Under the pieces are notes generated by a model that made no database searches, was not told the origin of the DNA, and saw only the letters and a program-made list of their open reading frames with translations. A program made the position numbers and the translations under genes. Positions 4,306 through 33,440 of a stretch of 64,000 bases of DNA are shown here, in pieces. This DNA is from an uncultured bacterium (GTDB lineage Bacteria > Muiribacteriota > Ozemobacteria > Ozemobacterales > Ozemobacteraceae), in contig CAZADH010000003.1 in assembly GCA_964483805.1 (NCBI GenBank), positions 6,414-70,413 on the forward strand, written 5' to 3'. How positions within the stretch are numbered: position 1 is the stretch's first letter; each line of letters begins with the position of its first letter.

Positions 4306-4363
4306 CAGAGGCGACAATCGGATTTGAACCGATGAGTGACGGTTTTGCAGACCGTTGCCTTAC
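4306..4363 (-). repeat. 58-bp direct repeat identical to the 3' part of tRNA-Cys (anticodon stem to acceptor 3' end plus 3 nt): putative attachment-site duplication (island left end)
   Basis: Sequence cagaggcgacaatcggatttgaaccgatgagtgacggttttgcagaccgttgccttac is identical to 20635..20692 inside and just 3' of the intact tRNA-Cys gene; the 5' part of the tRNA is absent here. Confidence 0.8.
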
Positions 4364-4416
4364 TACGTCCCTGGAGCGCCGCTCCATTAGCGACTTTCAA
4401 TGGTTGCACAGAATAC

Positions 4417-4515: not shown

Positions 4516-4707
4516 ATGACAGGTAGGCAGGTCATCAAGATCCTCGAAGCTCATGGTTGGCGGCTGGCACGCATCCATGGCAGTCACCACGTCATGGTCA
4601 AGCCCGGCGCACCACGATCGGTCCCGGTGCCCGTGCATGGCACCGCCGACATCGGCAAGGACCTCTTGAAGCGCATCGAGCGGCAAACTGGAGTGAAACT
4701 GACATGA
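4516..4707 (+). CDS. hicA: HicA-family mRNA interferase toxin
   Basis: 63 aa; motif ...ILEAHGWRLARIHGSHHVMVKPG... matches HicA (YcfA-like) toxins; ATGA overlap with the downstream antitoxin. Confidence 0.8.
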   Translation: MTGRQVIKILEAHGWRLARIHGSHHVMVKPGAPRSVPVPVHGTADIGKDLLKRIERQTGVKLT

Positions 4708-5117
4708 ACTTTTCTTACCCATTCACGATCAAACCTCAGAGCGACCGGGGTTACCTGGTTGAGTTCGTCGATATCGAAGAGGCCTTTACCGAAGGGCAAA
4801 CCATTGAGGAAGCGGTGTTCAACGCCCAAGAGGTCCTGACCGCCATTCTGGAGCAGCGCCTTGAAGACGGCGCCGATATCCCACTGCCATCGGCGGGAAA
4901 ATACAAGTACCGCACCACTCCATCGGCGTCAGTGCAGGCCGCCCTGCTGGTTCACAAGTCGCGCAACGGTACCAGCCTGGCTGACCTTGCCCGAGCGCTG
5001 GGCGCCTCCTGGCCGGTGGCGCAACGTCTCGAAAAACCCAAACACTCGCCAACCCTGCGGCAACTGGAACGGGCAGCAGCAGCATTGGGCAAGCGGCTCA
5101 TCCTGTCGTTTGAGTAG
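4704..5117 (+). CDS. hicB: HicB-family antitoxin (RNase-H-like N-domain + C-terminal HTH)
   Basis: 137 aa starting MNFSYPFTIKPQSDRGYLVEFVDIEEAFTEGQTIEEA... (typical HicB N-terminus); C-terminal helix-turn-helix-like segment; start codon overlaps the hicA stop. Confidence 0.7.
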   Translation: MNFSYPFTIKPQSDRGYLVEFVDIEEAFTEGQTIEEAVFNAQEVLTAILEQRLEDGADIPLPSAGKYKYRTTPSASVQAALLVHKSRNGTSLADLARALGASWPVAQRLEKPKHSPTLRQLERAAAALGKRLILSFE

Positions 5118-5160
5118 GTCGACAGCAGCGCCAGAAGTGGGTTCTCGCAGACCCAGAGCA

Positions 5161-5210
5161 TACGTCGTATGGATGACGTTCGTGGTGATCGAACGCGACT
5201 GCTCCACAAA
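5161..5210. promoter_or_regulatory. Copy 2 of the ~48-bp conserved element, upstream of the vapBC-like pair
   Basis: tacgtcgtatggatgacgttcgtggtgatcgaacgcgactgctccacaaa; paralogous to 4417..4463. Confidence 0.5.
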
Positions 5211-5345
5211 TTACCTCACGCAGGTGGGATCGTACCATGGGCGTGATCGACCGGCAACTGCTGGTATGTCTTGCTTCACTCCGACTTCGTCGTTGCTTTG
5301 TGCTATTATTACCGTGAGCCGGAATACGGCTGGAGGAGCACAGTC

Positions 5346-5570
5346 ATGTCGGCATTGACCCGCGAAATCGACCAGGAAATCTCGGCCCTGCCCGAGGAAC
5401 TCCAACGGCAGGTCCTCGACTACATCCGGCAACTGCGCACTCGGCGAATGCCCGGAGTCCCGGGGCCGCAGATGGTCCGGTTTGCCGGCATGTTTACGGC
5501 CGAAGAGGCCGACGCCATGTTGGCCGACATCAACGCCGCCTGCGGGCAGATCGACCATGGCGGCTGGTAG
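5346..5570 (+). CDS. Putative type II antitoxin (VapB-like) partnered with the PIN toxin
   Basis: 74 aa, acidic/helical; GGAGGAG RBS 8 nt upstream; 14-nt overlap with the downstream PIN-domain gene. Confidence 0.55.
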   Translation: MSALTREIDQEISALPEELQRQVLDYIRQLRTRRMPGVPGPQMVRFAGMFTAEEADAMLADINAACGQIDHGGW

Positions 5571-5973
5571 AGTTCTTCTCGACACCAACATCGCGATCCC
5601 TCTCCTCGCCAAGGATGCGGTCATCCTGCGCCGCCTGGAAGCCCCCATCGAGGTCTTCGTCCCCAGCATCGTCATCGGCGAGCTGTACTACGGCGCATTT
5701 CATTCGGCACGTGCCACCGAAAATGCACGGAAAATCAGCGAATTTGCTCTGTCCATGAAGGTGCTTGGTTGCGACATGCATTCAGCCCGGCTGTATGGTG
5801 AAATCAAAGCCGCGCTCCGCAGCATTGGGATGCCGATCCCCGAAAATGACCTTTGGATTGCCGCCGTGGCCCGACAGCACGAACTCACCCTCGTCACTCG
5901 CGACGCACACTTTGCCAAAGTGCCCAGTCTGTCCGTCGAGGACTGGTCGGTCGAGTCACCCGGCGGCACCTGA
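5557..5973 (+). CDS. vapC: PIN-domain ribonuclease toxin (VapC family)
   Basis: 138 aa; LLDTNIAIPLL...D...E...TRD pattern of PIN acidic residues; overlaps the upstream antitoxin gene. Confidence 0.75.
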   Translation: MAAGRVLLDTNIAIPLLAKDAVILRRLEAPIEVFVPSIVIGELYYGAFHSARATENARKISEFALSMKVLGCDMHSARLYGEIKAALRSIGMPIPENDLWIAAVARQHELTLVTRDAHFAKVPSLSVEDWSVESPGGT

Positions 5974-6063
5974 AGTCGCGGGGCGATCCCACGTTCATCT
6001 GGGTCCCTCGTCCATGCTTTTCACCATGTCGACGCCGCCCGGATGTAGTGGTTTGGGCACGGC

Positions 6064-6126
6064 CAAATTCGAGAAGCTCACCGTCAAATTCGATGAGCTG
6101 CCGAGCAAATTAGAGGAGCTCGTCGG
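6064..6126. repeat. Three tandem 21-bp repeats (CAAATTCGAGAAGCTCACCGT / CAAATTCGATGAGCTGCCGAG / CAAATTAGAGGAGCTCGTCGG)
   Basis: Direct inspection; two-helical-turn periodicity in the spacer between vapC and the next ORF. Confidence 0.6.
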
Positions 6127-6147
6127 CCAACCCTGAGGTGCTCGACA

Positions 6148-6438
6148 ATGGTGCGCCTGGTTCCAGGGGAGATTGAGTTCGAGGTTGATAACCCTGAGCT
6201 GCTGCCCAAGAAGTATGTGTTCCATGAAGTTCAGGAGTCGTTGAACCCACTCTGGGGCCGAATTGAACGGGCCCTGGAACGTGGCGAGGTAATCCCCGGT
6301 ATTCGACGGGTCCCCGCCACGCCGGTGGTCAAGATCACCAAGGTTGCAATACAATCGAGGTCAAAGTCAGCGGCGAATTCGGCCAAGAACAGGAGGTCGA
6401 AAGCATGCTTGCGCGCATCAAGAAGGTCTGGCTCGTAA
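6148..6438 (+). CDS. Hypothetical small protein
   Basis: 96-aa ORF with GAGGTG RBS; overlaps the start of the next ORF; no recognisable domain. Confidence 0.3.
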   Translation: MVRLVPGEIEFEVDNPELLPKKYVFHEVQESLNPLWGRIERALERGEVIPGIRRVPATPVVKITKVAIQSRSKSAANSAKNRRSKACLRASRRSGS

Positions 6439-7460
6439 CCACCTTCGTGGTTGTCGTGTTGGTCCCGGCGGGTATCGGTGAGTATCTCAGGTGGAATAGA
6501 AACCCTGACATGGCGACCAATGCGTTGGCGGCGGCCCAGAACCATTGGGCGGCCAAGAACTATGACGGAGCATTGGCGGTCTACGATTACGTGATCGCCA
6601 ACGACCTCGACGGGGTCGATGTGGCTGAGGCCAGCCGCTCTGCTCTGCTCGATCTGCGGTACTCGTGGTCGAGCACGCTGAAGAGCGGTGTGTCCGGCTA
6701 TGTGACGGGCGAGATCGAGGATGGTGCCTCGCTCGTTGGTTGCGTGGCCGCCGATCTCACGGTGGTGGGCGATGTCCGGGACCTGATCAAACAGGGTTAC
6801 CGGAAGCTCACCGGTGGCGAGGTCGATACGATCAATGCTGCCTTGTCGGCGGCGGGATTGGGGATGACCGTGCTGCCGGAGATCGGCGCCGGCATCTCGA
6901 TCTGCAAGCAGATGCTGAAGTTCATGAACCCAGCGGTGAAAGCCCGTCTGGTGAGGCTGATCGAAATGGCCAAGGAAGCCAAGAATGCGACGGATCTGGT
7001 GGCATTCGCCGAGGATATCGGCAAAGCCTACGGCAAGATCGGCACTGGCATCTTCGGGGTCCTGCGCTCTGCAGGTAACGCCGAGGAGCTAAGCACGATC
7101 CTGAAGGTCATCGAGGCCGGCGGCAAGAAGAGCTACGCTGTTCTGCTGATTGGCGGCAAGGCTGCGACCGAGTTCATGACCGAAGCGATGAAGCAGGGTG
7201 TGGCGCTGACCGGCACTGCCGGCAAGCACGCGTTACGCTTCGGTCTGCAGTACCCGAAACTGGGTGTGCGTTTGGCGAAGATCACCAAGACGGTCGGCTG
7301 GGACCACTTCGATGTGGCGGTGATCGCTGCGGCTGACCTGCTGGCGAAGTTGTCGTTGCAGACGACTTTGCTGGCCGGGTTGGCGGTGTGGCTGTGGTTC
7401 CATTGGCTTGACGTACTCGGGCTGATGGTATTCCGCAGCCGGAAACAAGCGGTGGCGTGA
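6405..7460 (+). CDS. Hypothetical membrane-anchored protein
   Basis: 351 aa; N-terminal TM helix (VWLVTTFVVVVLVPAGIG) and C-terminal hydrophobic helix; otherwise no recognisable motifs. Confidence 0.5.
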   Translation: MLARIKKVWLVTTFVVVVLVPAGIGEYLRWNRNPDMATNALAAAQNHWAAKNYDGALAVYDYVIANDLDGVDVAEASRSALLDLRYSWSSTLKSGVSGYVTGEIEDGASLVGCVAADLTVVGDVRDLIKQGYRKLTGGEVDTINAALSAAGLGMTVLPEIGAGISICKQMLKFMNPAVKARLVRLIEMAKEAKNATDLVAFAEDIGKAYGKIGTGIFGVLRSAGNAEELSTILKVIEAGGKKSYAVLLIGGKAATEFMTEAMKQGVALTGTAGKHALRFGLQYPKLGVRLAKITKTVGWDHFDVAVIAAADLLAKLSLQTTLLAGLAVWLWFHWLDVLGLMVFRSRKQAVA

Positions 7461-7483
7461 GCTGCCGCTTGGCAGTAAAGGAA

Positions 7484-7508
7484 GGCGGGTGATGGGCCCG
7501 CTTTTCTT
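7484..7508 (+). terminator. Possible rho-independent terminator (gcggg-tgatgg-cccgc + TTTTCTTT)
   Basis: Short GC stem followed by a T-run after the 6405..7460 gene. Confidence 0.35.
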
Positions 7509-7590
7509 TAGCGGTCGGTGCGGTTGGGAACGGACAAAGAGGGAACAACCTATGCCCTGGGCCCCGGGCTGGTGGGGCTTACCACAGCCC

Positions 7591-7887
7591 GTTACCTGGC
7601 ACCCCAAAAACAGGTAACGGAGGGCGACCCCACACCAAGCCGCACAAACAGAGGACAGAGAGCAGATAGAAATACATTATGTTACCTAAGTTACCTGTTT
7701 CCTGATGAGGGTGTCTACGTATGTGGGCTTCTGCGTGTGTCTCTTCACCCACCAAATACATGGTCATACACACGCACACGTGTATATACGGAGTGCCTCG
7801 TCGAAAAACAGGTAACATAGGTAACAGGGGGTGATGAAAATGTCGTTGAGTGGCTCTGGGAGCGAGGCTATGGCCGTTACCTGTCTG
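7591..7887. promoter_or_regulatory. ORF-free region A with clustered CAGGTAAC/GTTACCTG boxes, including palindrome GTTACCTG-N12-CAGGTAAC (7591..7618)
   Basis: Boxes at 7591-7598, 7611-7618, 7681-7687, 7690-7697, 7809-7816, 7820-7825 and 7876-7883; same box order and orientation as region B (11481..11905). Confidence 0.6.
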
Positions 7888-7981
7888 CAAAAAAACGATA
7901 GGAAATCAACGACCCGTGCAACGCATGGCATCCGACGTATTGCCTCAAAACCCTGGCGGGGACGTGCCAGCCTACCCACCG

Positions 7982-10900
7982 TCAGTTTGCGTTCTTCACT
8001 ACTCTGAAGCCGGTCCACCGACTCTTGTAGGTCGGCGAAACACCGTTTCGCCAAGCGGCCCGGCAGTATTCGGCACCGTTGTCGATGCTGCCTCCCCTGT
8101 AGACCCGGCCACTGCCGGACGATGGGCCACGGGGATCGGCTGCACTGCCGCTCTCGTATTGCGTCGCGTACCAATCCCAGCACCACTCCCACACGTTTCC
8201 AGCCATGTCGTAGAGGCGATTCGAGTTTGGGCGGGACGTCCCGGGCACGTGCGTGGTCGCGCCACTATTGGTCGAATACCAGCAGTAGGCACCATCTATT
8301 GAACCGCCCCAGAAATAGGCAGTGGTTGAGTTCCCGCGATACGAGCCCTCCCACTCAGCTTCGGTTGGCAAACGATAACCGTTCGCATCCCAGTCGCACG
8401 TCACAACGTCACCAACGGCAATGGAAGTGGCGCCGGCCTGGTTTCGGTAGGCAGGAACACAGCCAAGGCGCACGCTCAATGCATTGCAGAAATTAACTGC
8501 GTCGAACCACGAAACCTGCTCAACAGGGCGAGACAGATCACCCGTGAAATACGATGGATTGACCTCTGTCACCGCTTTGTACTGCGCCTGGGTCACTTCA
8601 GTCGTCGCCATCAGGAAGGCCCGACTGATAGACACCTGATGTTGCGGCCCTTCGGAGCTTGACCGATTTGACTCGTCCGCTGGGCTCCCCATCGTGAACG
8701 TGCTCGCTGGAATTTGAACGAAAGCCATCGAAGCTCCGCCTCCGAGATCAGCTACACTCACTCCAGCCAGTTTCGCAATCTCCGAAGGAGTAAGTTGACG
8801 GTTGAAGACGCTGACATCATCAATCTCTCCCTGAAAGTTAGTTCCTGCATAGAACGAGGAACCAAGACGCATCCCCGTCAGGGCTGGGGCTGTAAGCATG
8901 CTTCCTGTATAGGAATTGCTGGCGATGAGAACCCCGTCCAAGTAAGTTGCCATCCCCTGTGAACCCCACGTCCCGACAACGTGAAACCAGCGTTCCACCG
9001 TAGGTACCCTGCCAGTGTCGGCCCATCTCCACCCCAATGGAGGTGGCGCGTAGACCCCGAACATCAGAGTATTCCCGCCGAACGCACCAATACTGAGGAG
9101 ATCACCCGTGCTTGTGATGCCAGAAAACACGTGAAGACCTTGCGTGGCCGTCCGAATCCAACTGGTCGGTTGGAACCACATTGAGATGGTTCCTGCCGTG
9201 AAGCCATTGATGATGGCAGGAAGGCCACCCTGCTTGTTACACCATCAAACGAAAAGGCGGAATTGACTCTGCCCCAACGGTCGATCGCAGGTGTCGTGTT
9301 CACTGCAACTCCGTCACGCCCAAGCCCTGATGCATCATTCGCGTTGCCATCCAGTGGATAATGAGCGACGAGGCCATCCGTCACGCCAATGTCCGTGCCA
9401 CCGTTAGTTCCCGTGCCTGCCTGCGCCGACAGACGGGTTACCTTCACTTCCTTATACCCCAGCCATACATTGTCTGCGACATTCGTCATCACACAGAATC
9501 CAACAGTCTTGGTCATGCCGACGGGAATCCAGCTGATGTCGAAGTCTGCACTCCGCATCTGCACCGAAGAATCGATGTTCAGAAAATCGTGCCCGTGGCT
9601 TGTGGAGTCACAGTAGGAGTAGAAGTAATATTCGGGGGAACCCGCCCCTACCGAAAGAGCGGGAACCCCAATGCGAATGGTCGTCGAACTGGTCGCGAGT
9701 CCGTCAAGGGGCGTCACCTGGCCATTCGAGACCGTCTTGAAGTCGAGATCAGGGTGTCCGACGAGACCACCCCGAGCCACATTATCAAAGACATCGCCGA
9801 TTGAGTTCCAGTCGATTAGCGATGCCTTTGCTACCAACGTGAACCTTGTGAACATCACGGGCATCTGTCCTTGACTCGGATTCAGTCGCATCTCGACAGG
9901 TTGGATCTGTCCGTTGGTGAACGTGGTAGACCGCTCAATGCCAGGGTAATTCGGGTCGTAGAACCAGATGGTTGACCCGTTCGCGCGATAAACAAGCAGC
10001 GCGTGTCCGTGACCCCCCTGCGCATCCGCTACCCCGAGGAACAGGGGTGCCTTCGTCACCCGCAAGGCTGCTTTCATAGCAGCAAAGGTAATCGTATGAT
10101 TCAGATCGAAACCCGTGCCGTGCACAGACGATGATTTCTGGAGGCGCGAGCAAAACCTGATTGTTTGGGCGTCATCCTGCCAGGCCACCTTGGTGGAATC
10201 CGAGTTCCAAACCGTCGTGCCGTTGGTCCAGAAGTTGTAGAGGGACTGCCCGCCTCTCCCATATCTCTCGTAGTACCAAGCGGCACCGAGCGTCATGCCC
10301 GTGCAGATACCACCTTGCGACAGACTCGAACCGCAATTCTCAGTTCGCCATCCGTCACGCTGTGGCCGAAATCCCGTGTCGACGTCGGGCGAGATGACGT
10401 CAGCGATCGGAAACGCGATCACCGCGATCGGGAGAATCGTGGGGAGAATCGTCACCAACCCACGTCGACTCGGAGAGGTCGACGAGTTGACCTGCGTGGA
10501 AAATGTGAGCTGTCCGTTTGAATAGCCGGTCACAGGCAGCACCGTGACGGCCCCCGTCGTCGGGTCGGTCTGGACCGCAAGCGCAATCTCATCCTGACGG
10601 GCGGTTGTCGGTACGGTGATTGAGACGGGACCACTACTCGGAACACCGGTTGATTGAACGACAATAGCAGGGGCCACTGGTCGTCCAGTGCTTATCGGCA
10701 GAGACAGCGAACTGACGCTTGCACAACTGACCTGGAGCTGGGTCGGCGTCGAAAACGCACCGGCGGGAATGTCAATCTTGAGCCCGGTCAGCGGTGATGC
10801 AGCAGTAACCGTAACGGTCTGCGTGCCCGTGGAAGCGCTGATTTCTTGCACGACCGTTGGCGTCTCAGTCACCACAGTCGAGAACGGGACACCATCAGTC

Positions 10901-11460
10901 TGCCACAAACTGAGCAGGCTTTCGACGGCGGCCGAACTGGCTCTATCAACTCGGGAAATGAGCGGAAACAACTGGCCACAGGCACCCATGCGAACCTTTG
11001 CGAACAAAACCGGGTTGGCAACGACATCGGCAATGCCATGAAAATCTGATTGGCCTGCAATTTGCCCACCCTCGACACGGATGGAGGCGATTGTCGGCAG
11101 TGCCAAGATCTGGAACGTGGCCTCGACAACACCATTCGTGACCGAGACCGTTTGCGAAGCCACGATTGTCGGTGTGGCCATGTTGCCCGGTTGAACAGAC
11201 GTGATTACAAAGGTCACGGTCGGGTTTGTCGTGGTCGTCGCAACCTGAAGGGACGCTCGCCCATTGTATGAATCAACCTTGAGAGAAAACCTCAACGCCG
11301 CATGCCCAACGTTAACAGGACTCGTTACCAAACCCTGGATTTGACCGGGAGAATCCGAAAAAGATACCCCAGTGGACTCCTGGGGCAAACACCCCGCCAG
11401 CACGAGCACAAAGACAATACATACGCCCACGAGGGCGATCGTGAGGATCCTCTGTTTCAT
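7982..11460 (-). pseudogene. Frameshifted gene for a ~1160-aa surface lipoprotein: lipobox signal peptide + Ig-like/beta-rich region + C39-like cysteine peptidase domain + LamG (concanavalin-like) domain + FGE-sulfatase (formylglycine-generating-enzyme family) domain
   Basis: ORF 9064..11460 (signal ...VLVLAGC; CTGMTLGAAWYYERYG ... GGHGHALLVYRANGSTIWFYDPNYPG resembling C39-like peptidases) ends inside a LamG domain (...SFDGVTSRVAFLP). The domain continues in another frame (AIINGFTAGTISMWFQPTSW...) into ORF 7982..9181, which ends with FGE-sulfatase motifs (GYRLPTEAEWE...YDMAGNVWEWCWDWY...RGGS). A single-nucleotide indel near 9215-9218 restores one reading frame. Confidence 0.7.
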
Positions 11461-11480
11461 GGTCGGTCTCCGGGTTGAGT

Positions 11481-11905
11481 GAAGTTACCGGGGGTAACTA
11501 ATGGGGTTCTGGCACCACGATATCATAAGACGGCGGCGGGGTGCTCGGACCACCGAGACAGATTCGCCGACAGGGGATTGTATGCACATGCATACTGCCA
11601 CTCGGGACATTATTCCCACGGAATACCACGTCACCAGGGCGCCAACGTCAGCGCCAGTCACCTGGGGTTGCCTCCGGTTACCTGGTGAATCTACAAACAG
11701 GTAACCGTCATTGACCCCATTGGGGGACCTATGAACAGACGGAACGCAACAACCATAAGAAGATAGATTACCTGGGTTACCTATTTCTTTCATACATACC
11801 CTATACGTATGGGCGCTCTCTCCGCCCCCCCCCCCGACCACGTGCGACATAATACGTATAGGTGGGTGTGTGCCTGCCGAAAACAGGTAATCCAGGTAAT
11901 CCGGA
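11481..11905. promoter_or_regulatory. ORF-free region B upstream of the lipoprotein gene with clustered CAGGTAAC/GTTACC boxes, including palindromes GTTACC-N3-GGTAAC (11484..11498) and GTTACCTG-N13-CAGGTAAC (11677..11705)
   Basis: Further boxes at 11767-11782 and 11884-11900; paralogous arrangement to region A; contains the presumptive promoter of the 9064..11460 gene. Confidence 0.6.
11825..11835. repeat. Homopolymeric C11 (G11 on the coding strand of the downstream gene) tract
   Basis: Eleven consecutive C at 11825-11835 inside regulatory region B, ~365 bp upstream of the lipoprotein start codon. Confidence 0.8.
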
Positions 11906-12002
11906 GCAGGCAGGGTGGTGCCTGATGGCTTCGGTAGCAGATCCACAAACATTACCGATTGCCGGCGAGAGATGGGTAATCAACGGAGAATCGTGCTTTG
12001 CC

Positions 12003-14644: not shown

Positions 14645-14806
14645 CACGGTTGCCGAGAGCATATTTTGATGTGTTGCCGCAGTTTCTGCCCACCCTGTCA
14701 TAGTCTAGGAGTTCGTCCCCGAAAACCTCCGCGACTGAAGGTTCAGTCGCAGAAGGCCCATTTGTTCACATGCGGTGACATCCAGCTCGGTGAACGAGCG
14801 ACCGAC

Positions 14807-16369
14807 TTAGCTTTGGCGAAGGGCCGACAAACCCGCCAAGAGTCTTCTTCCTGCCACAACCGCCGAAGGGTGGGCGCGCGTCGCACACGGAAGACCGACT
14901 AATTCTGCGGTCGCCCGCTGCCATTCGGACAGTGTCTCTGACGCAGCGCTACCGCACCCGGACCGAACGGCCTGAGCCGCCTTCTTCTCGCCCTCAGGCT
15001 CTTCCGTATTACTCTCTGCAACCCCTTGGATTACGGCTCTCGGAAGCCCCAGCACGCGCCCTGTGAGGACCAGAGCCGACGATCTGCTCCGCCTCAGGAT
15101 CAGGCCGGCACGAACGGCATACTCCCCACCGATCGCACTGATAATCCGATCGACGAGTTCATCCCGCCTGCTGGCGTCCACGTCGAGATCCAAGGATGGG
15201 ACCACAAGCCGTTTGCGGTCAAGAAACGTGCCGGTCCCAGGGCCTCGACCAGCGGAACAGTCCGCAGTCAGCCCGAGGACGAAACCAACCAGGCATGATC
15301 CCGCCGATCGGTGAGGAGGGAGCACCGCGATATCCATTGCTTTAGCGACGTCCAAAATCTTCGCACCAAGAATGAAATACTCTGTAAGGCCGAGGTCGTC
15401 GATGGCACGCAGTTCGGTTTCGAGCAGGCGAAGGTGCGTGTGGCCAAGGCCGCGCAGACTCAGACCAGCACGGCAACGCTCGGCCAACTCGCTGAGTAGG
15501 TCGTTGTCAAAGCGCAGCTTGGGTAGCGTGAGCGTTCCCAGATCGAGGTCGACAGAGCACAGATCTGCAACGCGTCGTGAGTTGGCCAATGCTTCCGGGA
15601 TGTCGCAGAATGTTGCAGCCATTTCCTTGCCAGACTTCAACCAGAACTCATCGGTGGGGAAGTGAACTCGGGTGGGGTCGTCGATGGTCGCTCCTGTCAC
15701 GCCTGCCAGCAAGATTTCGTGGGCGCGGGCATGCTCCCTTGTCACATAGTGCACGTCGTTGGTGGCCACGACGCCGACCCGGAGGCGCCTGGCGAGCCCT
15801 AGGAGTTGCGGCATCAGACCTCGTTGCTCAGGAATACCATGGTTCTGGAGCTCGATAAAGAATCGGTCGCGCCCGAACAGGCGGGTCCATTTTTCGAGCG
15901 CAACCTCAGCATCTTTCTGCATTCCTCGCAGGAGAAGACCTGGAATCTCTCCCCACAAACATGCGCTAAGCCCAACCAATCCGCGACAATGTTGCGCCAG
16001 GAACTCGAACTCGACATGCGGTCTCGACAAGGAACCGCGATGGGCCCGGGTCACCAGCGCAATCAGGTTTTGGTAACCAGTCGAATTCTCGGCCAGCAAT
16101 ACAATGTGTGTCACGCTGATCGGGGGGCACGCCTCACTCCGTTCGCTGCCAACCGTCAGCTCAATGCCATGAATCGGTTTGATTCCGCGTTTCTTGGAGG
16201 CAACGTGGAAAGCCACCGACCCTTGGAGCGTGTCATGGTCGGTCAGAGCCAGAGCGGACATTCCCATTGATGCGGCCGCATCGGCAAGTTGGCCGACTCT
16301 TGCGGTGCTGTCGCCCATGCTGTGCTCGCTGTGAACGTGAAGGTGGACGAAATCGTTACTCGTTCGCAT
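14807..16369 (-). pseudogene. Truncated DNA polymerase III alpha (DnaE/DnaE2-like) N-terminal fragment: PHP domain plus the beginning of the palm
   Basis: HLHVHSEHSMGDS...LALTDHD PHP metal-binding motifs; ORF is only ~520 aa versus >1000 aa for DnaE and stops with no downstream continuation in any frame. Confidence 0.6.
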
Positions 16370-16630
16370 GGTCCCTCCGTTGCGTTCTCTCGTCGTCACC
16401 ACCCAGCCAAGCAACTTTCGGGCCACGCAAGATCTTCAACTGGAATTCAGCGAATCGCTGCACTTCGCCGGCCTTGAGCGGCGACAGGTAGGTGCGCGGC
16501 GCGTCGCTGGCGAGAGCAATCGGCGTGATGTGCGCCGCTATCCGGTCCAATGCCTAGATGCCCCGCCTTGCTGCAACAGAGCCGCATAGTCATCGGCAAC
16601 CGTGCAGCAGGTTTGGGCCACTACTTGACC

Positions 16631-17644
16631 CTACTCAAGATCTTCTGCCGGTTGAGGAACAAACACCTTCTTCAGAGGAATGATGCTCTTATACGCTGAA
16701 TCCATCTTGTCATAGTATCTGAGCACCAGGTCGACCAGTTCCTGCCCGTCAACCAAGCGCAGGTTGCTCTTGCTTCTGGCAAAAGCTCTTGCCTGGCTGC
16801 TGAACGTGCTGAGCGAAACGAGCAGGCCATACTCTGTTGAGGCGACTTTGCCGTACAACGCGGAAACGGCTGGATCCCCAATCGTTCCGTCATTGCTCTT
16901 AACCTGCACCTTCACAATTGGCGGAACAAAGCCAAGTTCGTCCGTGTGTGCGATGATGTCAACGCCACCATCTGGTCCTTCGGGAGAAACCCTCGTGTGG
17001 TAGCCCATTAACCCGAGAATGTGGGCGACAAACTCAGAGAATGGATGCCCCTTCAGCTCCTGAGAGAGTTGTTTCAGAATGAAATCACGCGTCGTTTCCT
17101 CGATCTCTGCCGCCACTGGCGCAATCGTCTCGTCAACGTCAGGATCCACGATGTCTGGTTTTTCCTTGGAGTCCATGCGCTTGTAAATCTCGTCTGCATA
17201 GTTTCTTATCTGAAAAAACGACATCGCCGAACCCATCTCAAAAAGGGCCCCTTGAGAAAACGCAGTCCTCGGGATCGCCCTCAACCACTGGACTTTCCTT
17301 CGATTTGGATATCTTGGAACCAACTCAGTCGAAAACTCGTAGCCACCAACGACCTTTGCAACGTTGACCGTCCGATCATGCCTTCTGGGATAGATAACCA
17401 AGTCTCCCACCTTCATTTCATGAACAAAGCGATAGAGTTGGCCCGCGTAGTTTGCTATCGCCCCTTTTTTGACAGCCGCGTATGCTTTTTTGATGGCCTC
17501 TTTGAATGCGTCCCTGGACTTGCCAATTGAGGAGAGGTCCCCGAGCTCAGCCCAGCCCAAAGCGACACAGGGCTTTGTCATGAACAAGCCGTCGGCGTCA
17601 CCCACACGTCCGCCATGGATCCCCCACACAGTTTGTGTTGTCAT
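16631..17644 (-). CDS. mrr: Mrr-family type IV (modification-dependent) restriction endonuclease
   Basis: Mrr_N-like winged-helix N-terminus and Mrr_cat core (GYHTRVSPEGPDGGVDIIAH ... VKVQVK) with the PD-(D/E)xK arrangement; start at ATG 17644 (AAGGA RBS) preferred over 17680. Confidence 0.75.
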   Translation of the reverse strand: MTTQTVWGIHGGRVGDADGLFMTKPCVALGWAELGDLSSIGKSRDAFKEAIKKAYAAVKKGAIANYAGQLYRFVHEMKVGDLVIYPRRHDRTVNVAKVVGGYEFSTELVPRYPNRRKVQWLRAIPRTAFSQGALFEMGSAMSFFQIRNYADEIYKRMDSKEKPDIVDPDVDETIAPVAAEIEETTRDFILKQLSQELKGHPFSEFVAHILGLMGYHTRVSPEGPDGGVDIIAHTDELGFVPPIVKVQVKSNDGTIGDPAVSALYGKVASTEYGLLVSLSTFSSQARAFARSKSNLRLVDGQELVDLVLRYYDKMDSAYKSIIPLKKVFVPQPAEDLE

Positions 17645-17949
17645 TTCACAGTTGTCCTTTGCATGATTGCAGGCCATCATACGAGATACATACGTCGATG
17701 GCCATCGATACGCATCCCATTGGCCCCATGCAATCGTCGGAATTCACCTGTTTCGAGAACACAGGGGCATTTGACGTGGCGCTGGACGCTTTCACCATCC
17801 GATGGGCACATCGAATGTTGCTCGTTGGCAGATCATAAATTGATGTTGCGTCGTCACTCGCTCCATGAGGCGAATGCACGTGCATGTGCGGATGGAAACC
17901 GCGTTTTCATTCGTGATACCATCGAACTAGACGAAGGAGAGGACGCCAG

Positions 17950-18375
17950 ATGAGCTTGAATGCAGCCCCGGCCAAACACCGCACCCAGATCACCGGCAAC
18001 GTCGGCTTGTACTACGTCTGCTACAAGCTTTCACGGATGGGCTGGAACGTTCTGCCCACCTCAAGGAACGCCAGGGGCATCGATATCATTGCCTACAGCC
18101 AGGACGCCTCGCGTTACGTGGCGATCCAGGTAAAAGCGTTGAGGAAACGGAATCCGGTGCCGCTGGGCAAAGACCTCGACAAGATCATGGGCGACTTCTG
18201 GGTGATCGTGAACAACCTGGCCGGCGAACCTGCTGCGTTCATCCTGAGGCCCAAAGAGGTAAGGAAGCGTGTCCATGAAGGTGTGAAGAACGGAGTGAGG
18301 AGTTACTGGCTTCAGCCAAAGCAATATGATGTAGGTCAATTCCGTGAGGCCTGGCATAGGATTGGGCCGGGATAA
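17950..18375 (+). CDS. Small PD-(D/E)xK-type nuclease-fold protein (hypothetical)
   Basis: 141 aa; GIDIIAYS ... YVAIQVK resembles the D...(E/Q)xK motif of restriction-endonuclease-like folds; GAAGGAG RBS. Confidence 0.45.
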   Translation: MSLNAAPAKHRTQITGNVGLYYVCYKLSRMGWNVLPTSRNARGIDIIAYSQDASRYVAIQVKALRKRNPVPLGKDLDKIMGDFWVIVNNLAGEPAAFILRPKEVRKRVHEGVKNGVRSYWLQPKQYDVGQFREAWHRIGPG

Positions 18376-18406
18376 TTGTGACCGAGAACCAAGGCGGAGG
18401 ATCGAC

Positions 18407-19543
18407 ATGAAAGCACCAGCACACCCGAACTTGGCGGGCGTTGTTGTCTTCATCCTGTGGGTATCGGTCGCTCTTTTCGTGGTCGGATGCGCCACTCGGG
18501 ACAGCAACCCGTTGACGGTGACAACAGGTTCGACAATCAGCACACTGGCACCGACCACCGGCGCGAGAGTGCTACTGTCGGTTCGCCTCGACGGATTCGA
18601 TGGTCGCCCCAGCGTCGTTACGTCCAGCGGCTCAACACCACCAACCGTAACAGCAGTTCTCGTTACATTCGACTACGCCGCCGTTCCCCCTGCAATGACA
18701 ACCGTTGCCACGACTATGCCTGTGTCGATCGACGGCGTGGCCACAGCATCGTTCAGCAATCTGCCCATCAGACCTACGCTGGCCAGGGTCGTCGTGAACG
18801 GCGGGACGATCTCTACGTATTCGCGGTTTCGTGGTGGTGCCGACTTGGTGGCAGGTTCGAACGCCATCGTCGTGAACCCGGAGAGCAGTGCTTTTCAAGG
18901 GGATCTTGTAGGATATGCCCTCGAAAAGATCGTATCGAGTGCTGGCTATCTGACACAGGTGCGGACTGGCCTTGTCGCGGCAATTCGGGCAAGAACCTCG
19001 GTGCTGCAGGGGAGATCTCCAAGTTCGGCGTATTCGGATGTCGACGCGAACCTGCCGGTGATACTTGCGGCGTTGTCGAGCACAGGTATTGGGACAGGTT
19101 CTGGGACCGGGGTTGGAACGGGCACGGGTTCTGGATCGGGGACTGGAACCGGCACAGGGACCGGGGTCGCATTGACCGCTGATCAACTGCTCACCGCCCA
19201 ACTGATTGGCACGTGGAAAATGTCATACATTACATTCAGCCTGACTGGCCAACTGCGACAGGTCGTCCCCAATTCCCTGGGCCAGATTACGACGATCACC
19301 TTCAACGCAGATGGTTTGGGGATGAGCGTCGACTACTCCCGATACACCTCGACCCAAATGACCTATTACCAGACGAAGGAGACCACGGGTGTCGTCACAT
19401 ACGCTTCGTGGTTCATCTCGAACGGCAGGATGGTCTCGACGTCCAGCGAGGGAACCTTCACGAACTCAGTTGCTATTCAGGGAAACACGTTGACGCAAAC
19501 GTCGATGGATGGGGAAGTGGCGTTGTGGACGAGGGTTTCGTGA
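18407..19543 (+). CDS. Lipoprotein with a Gly-Thr/Ser repeat linker (hypothetical)
   Basis: Signal peptide with lipobox (FVVGC); internal GTGSGTGVGTGTGSGSGTGTGTGTG linker; GGAGG RBS. Confidence 0.6.
   Translation: MKAPAHPNLAGVVVFILWVSVALFVVGCATRDSNPLTVTTGSTISTLAPTTGARVLLSVRLDGFDGRPSVVTSSGSTPPTVTAVLVTFDYAAVPPAMTTVATTMPVSIDGVATASFSNLPIRPTLARVVVNGGTISTYSRFRGGADLVAGSNAIVVNPESSAFQGDLVGYALEKIVSSAGYLTQVRTGLVAAIRARTSVLQGRSPSSAYSDVDANLPVILAALSSTGIGTGSGTGVGTGTGSGSGTGTGTGTGVALTADQLLTAQLIGTWKMSYITFSLTGQLRQVVPNSLGQITTITFNADGLGMSVDYSRYTSTQMTYYQTKETTGVVTYASWFISNGRMVSTSSEGTFTNSVAIQGNTLTQTSMDGEVALWTRVS
19085..19180 (+). repeat. Tandem hexanucleotide (GGNACN)n repeat encoding the (GT/GS)n linker
   Basis: About 16 consecutive 6-nt units seen directly. 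Confidence 0.7.
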
Positions 19544-19604
19544 ACGGCCATATGCAATCGCATATCGCCCACGTCACCGCCGGCATCGCCAGAAAGGCCG
19601 GATC

Positions 19605-20486
19605 ATGACCTACCGCCGCCGCCCACCTCGATACAACCGTGACGACCATGAGGCCTTCGGACATACTGCCGAATGGGACCGCAGGGGCGCGAAGGCAATC
19701 CCGCCGCTGCATACCTGCAGATTCGAGACCGAGAACCACCATGCCTACATCAACATGCAGATCAGGCCGGAACACCGGAATCCTCAGTCGATGCAGAAGT
19801 TGTCGGCCGAGATCTTTCCTCTCACTGGCCACAAGCTCGTTTGCGTGCAAGAGATCGGCGAAGACACGATAGAACGCTGCCTATACCAGGCTCAAGACGC
19901 CAACGACCTGACGCCCGATGCCGGCGCCGAGTTTCGCCTACGGATCACCGTGAACTGTCGCGATGTGGTCAGCTTCATCATTCCACCGTCATACGGAGAC
20001 AAGATTGGGGCGAAGCATGCTCTGCTGGCTGTATTGCGAAAGTACTTCGTTGACTCGTTGGGGAAACCCATTGTCCGGGGCATTCCCGAGACGAGAGCCG
20101 ACACCGACCTCGGTAAAGAACAACGAAAAGAGCGGCATCACCGCAGGTATGAAACCCCGCACTCAGAAGCGCCGGGCTCCCCGATCGAGGAAATGCTGGC
20201 AGCCGAAATGACCCGGTGCGGCATTGTTTTCACGCCCCAACCACAGAGCTTGATCGACGAGAAGTTGTTCACCCGACCAGACTTCTTGGTCGAGGAGCTC
20301 AAATTGATCATCTACTGCGATGGGTTCGAGTTTCACGCTACCAAGGAACGCATCATCCGCGACAAACAGCAAGACAGGGTATTGCAGATCAATGGGTTCC
20401 GCGTGTTCCGGTTCTCGGGATCGGAGATCGTGGCCGATGTTAATCGGTGCGTACGGGATGTGCTGGAGTTGAAGACAAAGGGTTGA
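19605..20486 (+). CDS. DUF559 (Vsr-like endonuclease fold) domain protein
   Basis: C-terminal ...PDFLVEELKLIIYCDGFEFHATKERIIRDKQQDRVLQINGFRVFRFSGSEI... typical of DUF559; N-terminal ~190 aa unassigned. Confidence 0.55.
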   Translation: MTYRRRPPRYNRDDHEAFGHTAEWDRRGAKAIPPLHTCRFETENHHAYINMQIRPEHRNPQSMQKLSAEIFPLTGHKLVCVQEIGEDTIERCLYQAQDANDLTPDAGAEFRLRITVNCRDVVSFIIPPSYGDKIGAKHALLAVLRKYFVDSLGKPIVRGIPETRADTDLGKEQRKERHHRRYETPHSEAPGSPIEEMLAAEMTRCGIVFTPQPQSLIDEKLFTRPDFLVEELKLIIYCDGFEFHATKERIIRDKQQDRVLQINGFRVFRFSGSEIVADVNRCVRDVLELKTKG

Positions 20487-20613: not shown

Positions 20614-20637
20614 TTCGGACGGACTGACCGCCAACAG

Positions 20638-20709
20638 AGGCGACAATCGGATTTGAACCGATGAGTGACGGTTTTGCAGACCGTTGCCTTACCACTTGGC
20701 TATGTCGCC
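20638..20709 (-). tRNA. tRNA-Cys (GCA)
   Basis: Reverse complement folds as a cloverleaf with 7-bp acceptor stem, T-loop GGTTCAAATCC and anticodon loop CTGCAAA; no encoded CCA. Confidence 0.85.
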
Positions 20710-20723
20710 GAGCCATGAAAAAG

Positions 20724-20796
<73 letters not shown>

Positions 20797-20813
20797 ATTC
20801 AGACAACTAACAG

Positions 20814-20887
20814 CGGGGCTGACGAGACTCGAACTCGCGGCCTTCTGCGTGACAGGCAGACGTTCTAACCGACTGAACTACAGCCCC
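20814..20887 (-). tRNA. tRNA-Asp (GUC)
   Basis: Reverse complement: acceptor GGGGCTG/CAGCCCC, anticodon loop CTGTCAC. Confidence 0.85.
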
Positions 20888-20902
20888 AGGTGCTTCGTCA
20901 AG

Positions 20903-20974
20903 TGGGCGATGACGGGATCGAACCGCCGACAGCCTGCGTGTAAGGCAGGTGCTCTGCCACTGAGCTAACCGCCC
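20903..20974 (-). tRNA. tRNA-Val (UAC)
   Basis: Reverse complement: acceptor GGGCGGT/ATCGCCC, anticodon loop CTTACAC. Confidence 0.85.
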
Positions 20975-28963: not shown

Positions 28964-29449
28964 ATGACCACGACCGTTCGCGGCACCATCCAGAAGGGGC
29001 AGGGCAAGGCGCAAGACACATTGGCCGAGCAGTTGCCGCTGTTTGCCGACTGTTTTCCCGAGGTTAACGTGTGCCATCCCGGCACCCTCAACATTCTGCT
29101 CGAAAAACCGGTGGTGGTGCTGGTGCCCGACTACACGAGTCCGCCGATCCCGTGGCACCCCGGGTTCAAGCTGGTCAAGAGCGGCGAGGTGTTTCAGTTC
29201 GTGCGCATCCGCTTGAAGATCGATGACCCCGGGTGTCCTGGGGCAGTGCCGGCCTGGATCTACCTCGCGCAGTTCTCGCCCTACCGCCAGAACCCCTTCT
29301 ACGCCGAGGTCATCGCCCCGAAACTGGCGTTCACCGGCACCCCTGCCTGCGAACTGATCATCCAGTCACCTTGCCAGGAAGGTTTGGTGGTGATGGCCGC
29401 CGGCGAGCCTGGCCCGGTGGGATCGAGCAATCGCGACATTTTGCGGTGA
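28964..29449 (+). CDS. DUF120 / archaeal-type CTP-dependent riboflavin kinase-like protein
   Basis: GTIQKGQGKA...PGTLNILLE and ...AEVIAP segments align with the GKVVSGLGEG...EGTLNLKLD / ...IIEIIAP motifs of archaeal RibK. Confidence 0.5.
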   Translation: MTTTVRGTIQKGQGKAQDTLAEQLPLFADCFPEVNVCHPGTLNILLEKPVVVLVPDYTSPPIPWHPGFKLVKSGEVFQFVRIRLKIDDPGCPGAVPAWIYLAQFSPYRQNPFYAEVIAPKLAFTGTPACELIIQSPCQEGLVVMAAGEPGPVGSSNRDILR

Positions 29450-30213
29450 CCGCAGCCTTGTCACGCAATACACGAGCAATATCGTCTTCGCCGCAAGTCA
29501 GTGACGGTGGCCGGGCCCGGCGCTATCAGAAAGACGGTGGGCGCCGCAATGCTCACGAAGACCCCGAAGGCGCGCCAACGCAGCGCAAGATCCTGATCAC
29601 CGGGTTCGAACCGTTCGGCGGTCATCCCGAGAACCCGAGCGGCATGATCGCGTCGCAGCTCGACGGTGAAATGCATTACGGGGCGAAGGTCGTCGGCGGA
29701 ACGCTGCCCGTCGTCTACCGCGCCATCGATGCTCAGTTGCCCGGTTTGATCGACGAGACGCAACCCGCGGCGATCCTCATGCTCGGGCTGGCGTCCACGA
29801 GTGAAACGATGCGTTTCGAGCGACTCGCCCTCAACCTCGATGATGCCCCGGCTCCCGACAACGACGGGGACACGCGCATCGACCGGGTCATCGATCCGAC
29901 AGGACCGGCCGCCTACTGGTCAACCCTGCCGCTCGACGAGATGGCCGCCGCCCTCGAATTGCATGCGGTGCCGGTTTCATTCAGTCGCGATGCCGGTGGC
30001 TACCTGTGCAATCACGTCTTCTTTCGGGCCCGGCACTGCATCGAGCAGCGTCGCGCGTCGGTGCCGACCGGGTTCGTTCACCTGCCCTGGCCGGCTGACT
30101 GGCCCTCATCCACCCGCGTGAACCACCGTCTCGAGTTTGCCACCCTGCACGAAGCCGTGCGTCGCATCGTGGCCATCATTGCCAAGTCTGTTAACGTCAG
30201 TGCGCCGGCCTGA
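29446..30213 (+). CDS. pcp: Pyrrolidone-carboxylate peptidase (pyroglutamyl peptidase I, family C15)
   Basis: KILITGFEPFGG...NPS and downstream Pcp motifs. No in-frame ATG near the conserved N-terminus, so the start is uncertain (GTG 29446 or TTG 29458; the ORF track frame opens at 29233). Confidence 0.65.
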   Translation: MTAALSRNTRAISSSPQVSDGGRARRYQKDGGRRNAHEDPEGAPTQRKILITGFEPFGGHPENPSGMIASQLDGEMHYGAKVVGGTLPVVYRAIDAQLPGLIDETQPAAILMLGLASTSETMRFERLALNLDDAPAPDNDGDTRIDRVIDPTGPAAYWSTLPLDEMAAALELHAVPVSFSRDAGGYLCNHVFFRARHCIEQRRASVPTGFVHLPWPADWPSSTRVNHRLEFATLHEAVRRIVAIIAKSVNVSAPA

Positions 30214-30250
30214 TCGACCGACGCACTGAGTTTCTGAAGCCGACGGGGAA

Positions 30251-31705
30251 CTATTTGCCGAGGTGTTTTGGCCGCACGATATAGCGGTCGGGATCACGGA
30301 GCACATTCGTCGCGCAATGCACGTCGCCCCAGAGCTTGTGATAAGGCGTGTCGTCGATGAAATGCGGGGTCAGGCCAAACCGGGCCACCGACGCGCGAAT
30401 CGAGTCGCGGAAGAGCTTCATCTTCGGGTCGGCGATCACCAGGTGCTTGCGCAGGATCAACTGATTGATGACGCCCGGCAGGTAACCGAGGTAACGGTTG
30501 TTCTTCTTGCCATACAGCATCGGAAACGAAATGATCGAGTGCGCCCGTGAACCGAGGCGGTGCACCTGGTTGATGCGGTCGCACAGCTTATCGACGTTTT
30601 GGTCGATGACACCGGCCAGGGCCAGGTTCTGACGGATGAACAGATCGGCGGTCGTTTTCGAGAACTTCTCGGGGGTGTTCATCGCCCCCGCGAAGGTTAT
30701 CCGGGGAAACCGCTGCCCGCCAGCGTAACCCGAATACGGCTCGTATGCACGAAGTAAAGACACCCACCGTTTTGCGCTCTCGTGATCAGAGTGCAGATAG
30801 TCGTATAGAAACAGCATCTGCTCGCGATATTCTTTCAGTTGAATGTTCTCGATCTCTTCGCGATCGGCATCGAGGACGAGTTTCAGTGCCAACGCAGGAT
30901 CGCCTTTGACCAGCGTGAAACCTTCGCCGGTCTTGTCGTTCGGCACGATCGACAGATACTCATCGCAATGCCCGACGGTCAGCCAGTCGGCCTCGACCTC
31001 AATCATGCGGTCGCGGTAGCCGCACTTCGCAAACAGCTCGCGAAATTCAGGGGTAATCGTATTGCCAACCACGAGCACATCGCACGGCGTCACTTCGATG
31101 TTGCCGCCCATGTCACCACCGCGGGGTTGTTGGCTCGGATTCTTCAGATAGCAGGCGTTCCAGCTCTTGGTCAGGGCCGGCCCCACCAGGCCACCTTCAT
31201 AGAACATCATCGAGGCTGCCGACCGATTGGCATCGAGAATGAGCAAACGCGGCTTCTCCTCACCGCGCAGCTTGACCGTGCCGATTTCGCCCCAGTCCTG
31301 CATCCAAACATCGCTGTCGATCTTGAGCGGTGCCTGTTCGACAAATCGCTTCATCGTGTCTTTGCCCAGTTCCTTTTCGAGCACATCAAAGGTCTCCTGA
31401 AAGGCACCGAACACCATGACCTTGAAGCTGTCGGCCCCACGCAGGCCATCGAGTTCGTGGATCTTGGCAACAATGCGCACGAGATTGGCCACGAATTTCA
31501 CCGTCTGCGATTGCCAACTGGCAACGACCAGTACCTTGATCGGCAGGTTGTTCGGGCTGAGCAGACGAATGCTCTCGATGTCGGCCAGCTTGATCTCGGG
31601 GACCGACGCATCGGTCTTCGGAGACACGGCAAAGACGGGGGCGATAAACGTTACGGCCAGCAGGGCCAGGGCCACAACAAGGGTTCGGGTGCTCGATCGG
31701 ACCAT
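30251..31705 (-). CDS. Secreted protein-arginine deiminase (PAD)-like enzyme, vertebrate-type PAD catalytic domain
   Basis: Signal peptide (MVRSSTRTLVVALALLAVTFIAPVFA); VGHCDEYLSIVP and WGDVHCATNVLRDP closely match the PAD catalytic His and Cys segments (FGHVDEFLSFVP / GEVHCGTNVRRKP); strong GAGGAGGG RBS. Confidence 0.65.
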   Translation of the reverse strand: MVRSSTRTLVVALALLAVTFIAPVFAVSPKTDASVPEIKLADIESIRLLSPNNLPIKVLVVASWQSQTVKFVANLVRIVAKIHELDGLRGADSFKVMVFGAFQETFDVLEKELGKDTMKRFVEQAPLKIDSDVWMQDWGEIGTVKLRGEEKPRLLILDANRSAASMMFYEGGLVGPALTKSWNACYLKNPSQQPRGGDMGGNIEVTPCDVLVVGNTITPEFRELFAKCGYRDRMIEVEADWLTVGHCDEYLSIVPNDKTGEGFTLVKGDPALALKLVLDADREEIENIQLKEYREQMLFLYDYLHSDHESAKRWVSLLRAYEPYSGYAGGQRFPRITFAGAMNTPEKFSKTTADLFIRQNLALAGVIDQNVDKLCDRINQVHRLGSRAHSIISFPMLYGKKNNRYLGYLPGVINQLILRKHLVIADPKMKLFRDSIRASVARFGLTPHFIDDTPYHKLWGDVHCATNVLRDPDRYIVRPKHLGK

Positions 31706-31817
31706 GATGACGCCCTCCTCAATACGATGTACGGCGCGCAGAGTTGGTTTGATCATGATACCAGCGACCCGACAGCAAACACCAGGGCAATGCCAGGCCC
31801 GCCACTCAACCGGAAAT

Positions 31818-33299: not shown

Positions 33300-33440
33300 G
33301 GTGGGGGGTCTTCCTTGCCACGCTGGTCGAAGTGATGACGACCGATCGATGTCGTTGTCTGGGGTCAACGGGAATTTACTACGGATTCGGTTGGTGGTCT
33401 ATTGTATGATCGACATGAGTCCACACCGTTGGAGGTTCGC

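Follow-up and report, generated by a model that had tools for sequence, protein, structure and literature searches.

A lipoprotein gene split by a single-base frameshift within its LamG domain, and the predicted surface peptidase family to which it belongs

A pair of overlapping open reading frames (ORFs) on the minus strand of contig CAZADH010000003.1, from an uncultured bacterium, raises the question of whether two genes are present or one and, if one, what has divided it. The pair lies within a 64-kb stretch of this contig, the whole of which was analysed and is referred to here as the window. The upstream frame, ORF1, encodes 798 amino acids (aa) and the downstream frame, ORF2, encodes 399 aa; an earlier reading of the letters (the original prediction) had joined them as a broken lipoprotein gene with a C39-like peptidase, a LamG domain and an FGE-sulfatase domain. 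On its sequence, 7982..11460 is one gene for a lipoprotein of 1159 aa, split within the LamG domain by the loss of one nucleotide (nt). The split is most readily understood as a genuine and very recent strain-level frameshift that is neither programmed nor reversible, a reading to which we assign a probability of about 0.6.

The boundaries of both ORFs and their frame relation hold on the minus strand as originally described (Table 1). The ORF2 frame is −1 relative to that of ORF1 and is open upstream as far as a TGA at 9247..9245, while ORF1 terminates with a stop codon at 9066..9064, the two frames overlapping by ~180 nt. When the fused protein is compared with the window by tblastn, the frame changes at residues 748-750 (window 9211-9223). 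The end of ORF1 in front of this point, ...LVAHYPLDGNANDASG...SFDGVTSRV, reads as the first strands of a LamG domain, and these are the strands that are absent from ORF2. More specifically, the Laminin_G_3 profile (PF13385, concanavalin A-like lectin/glucanase) matches the ORF2 frame with E 2.8e-22 and 79.9 bits (cut-off 27.6) over profile positions 17-151 only.

The position of the break is given by an intact allele on a metagenome contig recovered in the metagenome scan (L081; ERZ795054 NODE-18067, 3813 bp, coverage 2.9). This contig aligns to window 9586..5776 with 99.6% identity, 14 substitutions and exactly one gap of 1 nt. At the gap L081 reads GGTGGACCTTCC and the window reads GGTGG-CCTTCC, which places one extra A in L081 between window positions 9225 and 9224; in the wider junction alignment L081 GGGTGGACCTTCCTGCC stands against window GGGTGG-CCTTCCTGCC. 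The L081 gene passes through the junction in a single frame (...SAFSVDGVTSRVDLPAVINGFTAGTISMWFQ..., the read-through being also given as ...SRVDLPAVINGFTAGTISMWFQ...), and across it the Laminin_G_3 match covers the full profile, 1-151 of 151, with E 5.8e-23. The intact allele and the LamG profile together bear out the claim of one gene cut by a single-base frameshift inside LamG. The original prediction was also right that adding one base would fuse the halves, but the site that it named, 9215-9218, is ~7 nt away from the missing A, and its fused length of ~1160 aa is corrected to 1159 aa.

Downstream of the break the window shows no decay, 9190..7982 (1.2 kb, down to the stop codon) being identical to L081, and the break is consequently either very recent or artefactual. 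The window does not appear to be generally noisy with respect to insertions and deletions, since the 3.8 kb of overlap with L081 contains a single one and a run of seven T residues is the same in both assemblies. The substitutions are unevenly distributed: a patch of 186 nt contains 12 of the 14 together with the deletion, a clustering that was absent from 200,000 random placements (P<5e-6, simulation). Within the patch, seven of the 12 substitutions are synonymous and five conservative (E695D, I718V, S721N, V738F, V750I), and eight fall at third codon positions. By these features the patch looks like a genuinely evolved divergent allele, derived from short-tract recombination or from co-existing strains, and unlike random error or mutagenesis of the kind produced by diversity-generating retroelements (DGRs). 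No paralogue that might have acted as a gene-conversion donor was found in the 64-kb window.

If the frameshift is genuine, it would have arrived with the short divergent patch or arisen inside it, through recombination or strain variation. The loss of one A from codon 746, inside LamG, would end translation after an out-of-frame tail of ~53 residues, and what follows, the remainder of LamG together with the FGE-type domain, would have neither a start nor an export signal. A decayed DnaE remnant elsewhere in the window was counted toward a real break, as another decayed gene in the neighbourhood.

The alternative that survives best, which we hold to be possible rather than probable, is an assembly or consensus artefact, in which the gene would be intact in the organism and the A would have been lost as the assembler or polisher threaded a strain-variable region. 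Several considerations weigh on its side and against a genuine mutation. The break is judged from assembled contigs, in which a consensus error at a strain-variable bubble is possible, and the deletion lies exactly inside the cluster of single-nucleotide polymorphisms and near the end of the low-coverage contig L081. The patch is 212-398 nt from that end, and the termination of L081 ~210 nt past the patch suggests branching of the assembly graph; an assembler moving from one strain to another in a mixed sample would be expected to leave a similar pattern. The absence of any divergence downstream suits an artefact no less than a very recent mutation. Furthermore, the source is evidently a draft of the metagenome-assembled genome (MAG) type, and the ORF1 product (P0001) is known from one NCBI-record contig only, of 88.7 kb. 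However, the site is not a homopolymer, the lost base being a single A in GGACC; no further insertion or deletion occurs in the 3.8-kb overlap; a de Bruijn contig does not normally contain a variant that no read supports; and the DnaE remnant indicates that real pseudogenes exist in the region.

Mechanisms that would give the break a function are much less probable. Neither a slippery heptamer (X XXY YYZ) nor a homopolymer or short repeat is present at the break site, and the lost base stands alone; for these reasons programmed frameshifting is unlikely, as are slippage in transcription and phase variation mediated by repeats. The last of these, raised in the original prediction as an on/off switch, would be a reversible (contingency) switching of the C-terminal binding modules. 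Two allelic states do exist, L081 having the intact one and the window the broken one, and surface proteins are the class in which such switches are usual; however, with no simple-sequence repeat or slippery site at the deletion, and with the nearby CATCATCA being a triplet repeat and thus unable to alter the frame, the idea is not borne out and is considered very improbable. A tract of eleven G residues (11825..11835, minus-strand sense) lies upstream of the gene, though away from the break. This tract, the sole run of at least 10 nt in the 64-kb window, is a candidate slippage-prone site located 365 nt upstream of the lipoprotein start, in the intergenic interval 11461..12002 and outside L081 coverage.

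More improbable again is a programmed −1 ribosomal frameshift, or transcriptional slippage, by which the full-length protein would be made from the sequence as it is. The frame downstream is open throughout and shows no degradation, and the shift needed, −1, is in the usual direction of programmed events, but no X XXY YYZ heptamer or A/T run lies between the stop at 9247..9245 and the LamG frame-change point (the 0-frame codons at the break being GAT GGT GTA ACA AGC AGG GTG GCC TTC CTG CCA TCA), a strain 99.6% identical simply carries the extra base, and no such shift occurs in the examined relatives L002-L005.

A division of the locus into two truly separate genes, one for an anchored protease and the other for a LamG/FGE protein in its own right, is no easier to accept. 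The ATG of ORF2 at 9181 is preceded by AGGA ~9-10 nt upstream, and ORF1 alone resembles the shorter members of its family, which are 420-800 aa long. ORF2, however, starts inside LamG with the first strands missing, as the partial profile match indicates, and has no signal peptide; its exact 399-aa product was not found in a collection of 15 billion proteins; and both the intact allele and the relatives have one ORF here. This last point answers to the comparison with orthologues that had been proposed for the locus, with the reservation that the Riflebacteria genes compared are taken as family members and not as proven orthologues, because a synteny comparison found no flanking genes in common. 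The weakest alternative, DGR-type diversification of a ligand-binding domain by mutagenic retrohoming with the frameshift as a by-product, is highly improbable. In its favour, the substitutions are strongly clustered and the variable proteins of DGRs typically have FGE-sulfatase/CLec folds; against it, the patch is in LamG and away from the C-terminal end of the FGE-type domain, its changes are largely third-position and synonymous, no template-repeat copy of 9150..9420 is present anywhere in the 64-kb window, and no reverse transcriptase was found among the larger window ORFs scanned.

Should the strain-level frameshift be real, the truncated ORF1 product could remain an anchored protease without its targeting modules; some residual function is conceivable because many of the family members found by HMMER are no longer than ORF1. 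A useful product of ORF2 is unlikely, since it would have no export signal and lacks the first LamG strands. The frameshift is of little weight in itself, whether it is a break of the gene at strain level or an error of the consensus, and 7982..11460 is to be annotated as one (pseudo)gene. It does provide a worked example in which one nearly identical metagenome contig located the missing base exactly and excluded recoding. Of wider interest is the protein, one of a large family that Pfam does not contain; the family combines an intact cysteine-protease signature with a ZU5-like domain and is found widely among uncultured anaerobic bacteria and in some archaea.

Table 1. Features of the split gene and of related loci. 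Positions are those of the window, except for loci L002-L005; residues are numbered on the intact protein.
Feature	Position	Strand	Detail	Basis
ORF1 (P0001)	9064..11460	-	798 aa; 5' part of the broken gene; last ~53 codons (9064..9223) out of frame	
ORF2	7982..9181	-	mechanical ORF of 399 aa, begun at an internal ATG; starts inside LamG; without signal peptide	
Site of 1-nt deletion	9224..9225	-	A missing from codon GAC (D746)	L081 alignment
Divergent patch	9191..9376	-	186 nt; 12 of 14 substitutions and the deletion relative to L081	alignment
Lipoprotein signal peptide	11389..11460	-	residues 1-24; lipobox L-A-G-C at 21-24	sequence read and alignment A5
N-terminal beta-sandwich (Ig-like) module	11026..11301	-	ends in FHGxADL motif	
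ZU5-like beta-sandwich	10471..10878	-	residues ~195-330	
Papain-fold cysteine peptidase-like domain	9751..10428	-	residues ~345-570	
Conserved residue N375	10336..10338	-		
Conserved residue C386	10303..10305	-		
Conserved residue H486	10003..10005	-		
Conserved residue D502	9955..9957	-		
Beta-sandwich domain(s) after peptidase	9421..9738	-	residues ~575-680	AF2 secondary structure, pLDDT 80-90
First LamG strands	9225..9363	-	in ORF1 frame (GLVAHYPLDGNANDASG...SFDGVTSRV)	
Remaining LamG (Laminin_G_3)	8774..9224	-	in ORF2 frame	
FGE-sulfatase domain (SUMF1-like, C-type-lectin-like fold)	7994..8722	-	followed by stop 7982..7984	
Locus L002	5527..8979		1150 aa	
Locus L003	722..4900		1392 aa	
Locus L004	5773..9039		1088 aa	
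Locus L005	5800..9111		1103 aa	

The order of domains in the intact protein, read as a membrane-anchored surface lipoprotein, is a lipoprotein signal, an immunoglobulin (Ig)-like module, a short helical linker, the ZU5-like domain, the papain-fold peptidase, a beta-sandwich, LamG and the FGE-sulfatase-type domain. The claim of a lipoprotein is upheld by the lipobox: the signal MKQRILTIALVGVCIVFVLVLAGC, assessed by direct reading rather than with a dedicated predictor, fits a positively charged n-region, a hydrophobic h-region and the lipobox pattern [LVI][ASTVI][GAS]C, and 90% or more of the closest relatives keep G23 and C24 (alignment A5). The Ig-like module that follows is lineage-specific and occurs also in the window ORF 18344..19543 and in several Riflebacteria loci. 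The former (+ strand, 399 aa, no Pfam match) contains a Gly-Thr/Gly-Ser repeat linker, and its copy of the module (…FxGxADLVA) matches that of the lipoprotein at 36% over 98 aa with E 6e-7.

At the other end of the protein, FGE-sulfatase (PF03781) matches with E 2.7e-42 and 145.6 bits (cut-off 23.3) over profile positions 5-255 of 255, and both this domain and LamG, each named in the original prediction, thus score above the Pfam gathering threshold. The FGE-sulfatase lipoproteins (the TIGR02171 family, GldK/PorK and PvdO) offer an obvious comparison. The window domain resembles them in its full-length PF03781 match and matches their NCBIfam models in part; however, its scores are far under their cut-offs. 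It falls below every NCBIfam equivalog cut-off, the best score being 79.6 against 544, with PvdO at 67 against 500, GldK at 65 against 350 and EgtB at 55 against 360. Because of this shortfall the role of the domain is taken from its fold class, and it is best treated as a putative lectin-like binding module. As read from the sequence, only one of the two catalytic cysteines of true formylglycine-generating enzyme (C336 and C341 in the human protein) is presumably present in ...RGGSIDNGAEYCRAAWR.... LamG and the FGE-type domain may both be viewed as candidate modules for the binding of a ligand or substrate.

The peptidase domain has an intact set of conserved Asn, Cys, His and Asp residues. 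In an alignment of 125 sequences, N375 and D502 are invariant (125/125 each), C386 and H486 are each present in 123/125 and N504 in 124/125, and the window protein keeps all five. An AlphaFold2 model built from the family alignment is confident, its predicted local distance difference test (pLDDT) score being 79 for the whole model and higher than 90 in the core. In this model C386 opens a helix (386-400), H486 is on a strand (485-494) and D502 follows a strand (497-501); the modelled arrangement, with Cys at a helix start, His on a strand, Asp, and an upstream oxyanion Asn, is that of papain-like (clan CA) peptidases. Since Ig-array proteins (complement, alpha-2-macroglobulin) swamped the Foldseek search of the 700-residue model, the peptidase domain was also modelled alone (pLDDT 87). 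The top twelve PDB matches of the domain alone are all papain-fold cysteine proteases, among them T-Mac/TDE0362, IdeS/Mac-1, IdeC, SpeB and interpain, although each is weak (E 9.6e-3 to 6e-2, template modelling (TM) score 0.2-0.34). Searches of residues 1-700 against Pfam, NCBIfam and PDB sequences gave no match, and no sequence-level similarity of the window protein to any PDB chain was found.

These results place the intact protein as a predicted surface cysteine protease and retain the fold class of the original prediction, but not its assignment to C39. Neither Peptidase_C39 nor C39_2 matches ORF1 or the fused protein in Pfam at E<=0.1, and no peptidase family of the C39 kind matches in 40 family members scanned. 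The C39/C39_2 peptidases (PCAT1-type, bacteriocin-processing) have in common with the window domain the broad papain-like fold and the Cys...His...Asp order; PCAT1, however, ranks 22 in the Foldseek list (E 0.17, probability 0.38), and the window gene has no ABC-transporter context. The best, though weak, structural matches are T-Mac/TDE0362 of Treponema denticola (PDB 9mdk, 9mdm), IdeS/Mac-1 (C66) and SpeB/interpain (C10), and all of these are secreted or surface papain-fold cysteine proteases. T-Mac is described (PMC11833123) as carrying N-terminal Ig-like domains followed by the protease and as being processed into two units. It differs from the window protein in that it is cut by another protease (PrtP) and has no ZU5-like, LamG or FGE-type domains. 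Two relatives in alignment A5, P0013 and P0023, have lost the catalytic Cys, and P0013 lacks the catalytic His as well; on account of these losses the subfamily probably includes pseudo-enzymes.

The domain in front of the peptidase, overlooked in the earlier domain list, is recognizable as ZU5-like by structure and by profile. Foldseek matches it to the ZU5 domain of ankyrin (3kbu_C/D) with probability 1.0 and TMt 0.63-0.64, and when a profile of region 195-345 is compared with the PDB the top four matches are the ZU5 domains of Ankyrin-3, -2 and -1 (best E 0.0019). Pfam ZU5 gave no match in 40 members scanned. In the family consensus the domain ends in T-R-H-F-S, with H in 98/125, F in 115/125 and S in 88/125 sequences. 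Among the ZU5 autoproteolytic domains (PIDD, UNC5, ankyrin), those of the PIDD type cleave themselves at H-F-S. The window protein and its closest relatives, however, have lost the motif, the former reading T-Q-V-N-S at 322-326 and the latter D-L-S or similar. Because H-F-S is absent, no self-cleavage would be expected of the window member. Zhang et al. 2012 (PMC3482391) proposed that autoprocessing by ZU5 domains is common to bacterial surface proteins in general.

When 1.84 billion representatives were searched exhaustively with HMMER, 1162 relatives were recovered, 813 of them at E<=1e-10, with a common core at ~residues 200-570. As judged from these searches, the core defines a family that is absent from Pfam, and the window protein has no NCBIfam match. 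No relatives above ~35% identity are present in the protein collections, and word-index searches of 5.8 billion clusters for close orthologues gave only P0001 itself. A profile of the whole family matched only PKD domains in the PDB, from the C-terminal parts of relatives. The MAGs that carry the family are labelled as Chloroflexi, Bacillota/Clostridia, Bacteroidetes, Thermotogae, Bipolaricaulota and Riflebacteria, and archaea, including Methanothrix, are represented as well.

The closest genomic relatives come from MAGs of Candidatus Riflebacteria/Rifleibacteriota, a lineage from which the window probably derives as well, and from a single unclassified MAG. Each genome has several paralogues, and the database entries of these relatives hold no precomputed Pfam domains. 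In four of them (L002-L005) a single ORF runs from the N-terminal module through the core to a C-terminal FGE-sulfatase domain, the spacer between core and FGE-sulfatase being fn3, Peptidase_M23 or none. The core is also joined to a C-terminal FGE-sulfatase in 7/149 family representatives (P0015, P0016, P0021, P0022, P0023, P0024 and P0140), and none of these seven has LamG. The combination of domains had been described as unusual; this view is not sustained, given that core and FGE-sulfatase recur together and only the LamG spacer is particular to the window gene. In terms of predicted domains, its architecture is a variation on a recurring modular theme and not an oddity. The family or its N-terminal module is present in at least four copies per genome in two MAGs (L001, L002, L004 and L072 in one; L003, L071, L075 and L077 in another), and the expanded copies in Riflebacteria-type MAGs differ in their C-terminal modules (Lcl_C, FGE-sulfatase, M23).

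It may be, and we advance this only tentatively, that the ZU5-like domain ending in H-F-S and the papain-fold domain directly after it together mark a large undescribed family of surface peptidases of uncultured anaerobes, that its members are released or activated by ZU5-type self-cleavage, and that the window gene is a derived member in which the motif has been lost and LamG and an FGE-type domain gained. PIDD and the FIIND domain of NLRP1/CARD8 cleave themselves by this ZU5-type chemistry. If it is true that such cleavage controls the family, a mechanism of animal cell death and inflammasomes would be extended to prokaryotic surface proteases. The reading of the window protein itself as a surface protease with binding modules has against it the absence of the H-F-S motif, the predicted status of the protease activity together with the low structural scores (best E 9.6e-3), and the assignment of the FGE-type role from fold.

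The gene is situated in an island-like stretch that includes toxin-antitoxin-like ORFs (as read from translations), Mrr, DUF559, a sigma-54 activator and the decayed DnaE remnant. No sigma-54 promoter match beyond chance was found upstream of ORF1, with none in 11461..12000 (-), and a scan for sigma-70 promoters and terminators was uninformative. A weak tRNA-like Rfam match (4309..4372, 31.6 bits) was not called by ARAGORN, and the putative toxin-antitoxin pairs at 4557..5973 were recognized from their translations and not by domain search. The DnaE-like remnant (14700..16426, minus strand, 539 aa) comprises a PHP domain and a partial DNA_pol3_alpha; it has an in-frame stop followed by ~25 DnaE-like codons (TELDVTACEQMGLLRLNLQ), ends just before the sigma-54 activator gene and appears to be a decayed paralogue. 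The Mrr endonuclease is encoded at 16631..17680 and the DUF559 protein at 19509..20486, and a cluster of four tRNA genes (Cys, Phe, Asp and Val) is found at 20637..20974. Farther away, a Peptidase_C15-domain protein with an N-terminal extension of ~118 aa, a protein-arginine deiminase (PAD)-like protein and a B12-binding radical SAM enzyme adjoin one another at 29233..33368 and may constitute a peptide-modification cluster. The remainder of the window includes a 1417-aa ORF with no Pfam match (59497..63750), a 1684-aa hybrid histidine kinase (49491..54545) and, at 37352..43293 on the minus strand, two tandem paralogous HAMP-SpoIIE (PP2C phosphatase) sensor proteins of ~1000 aa.

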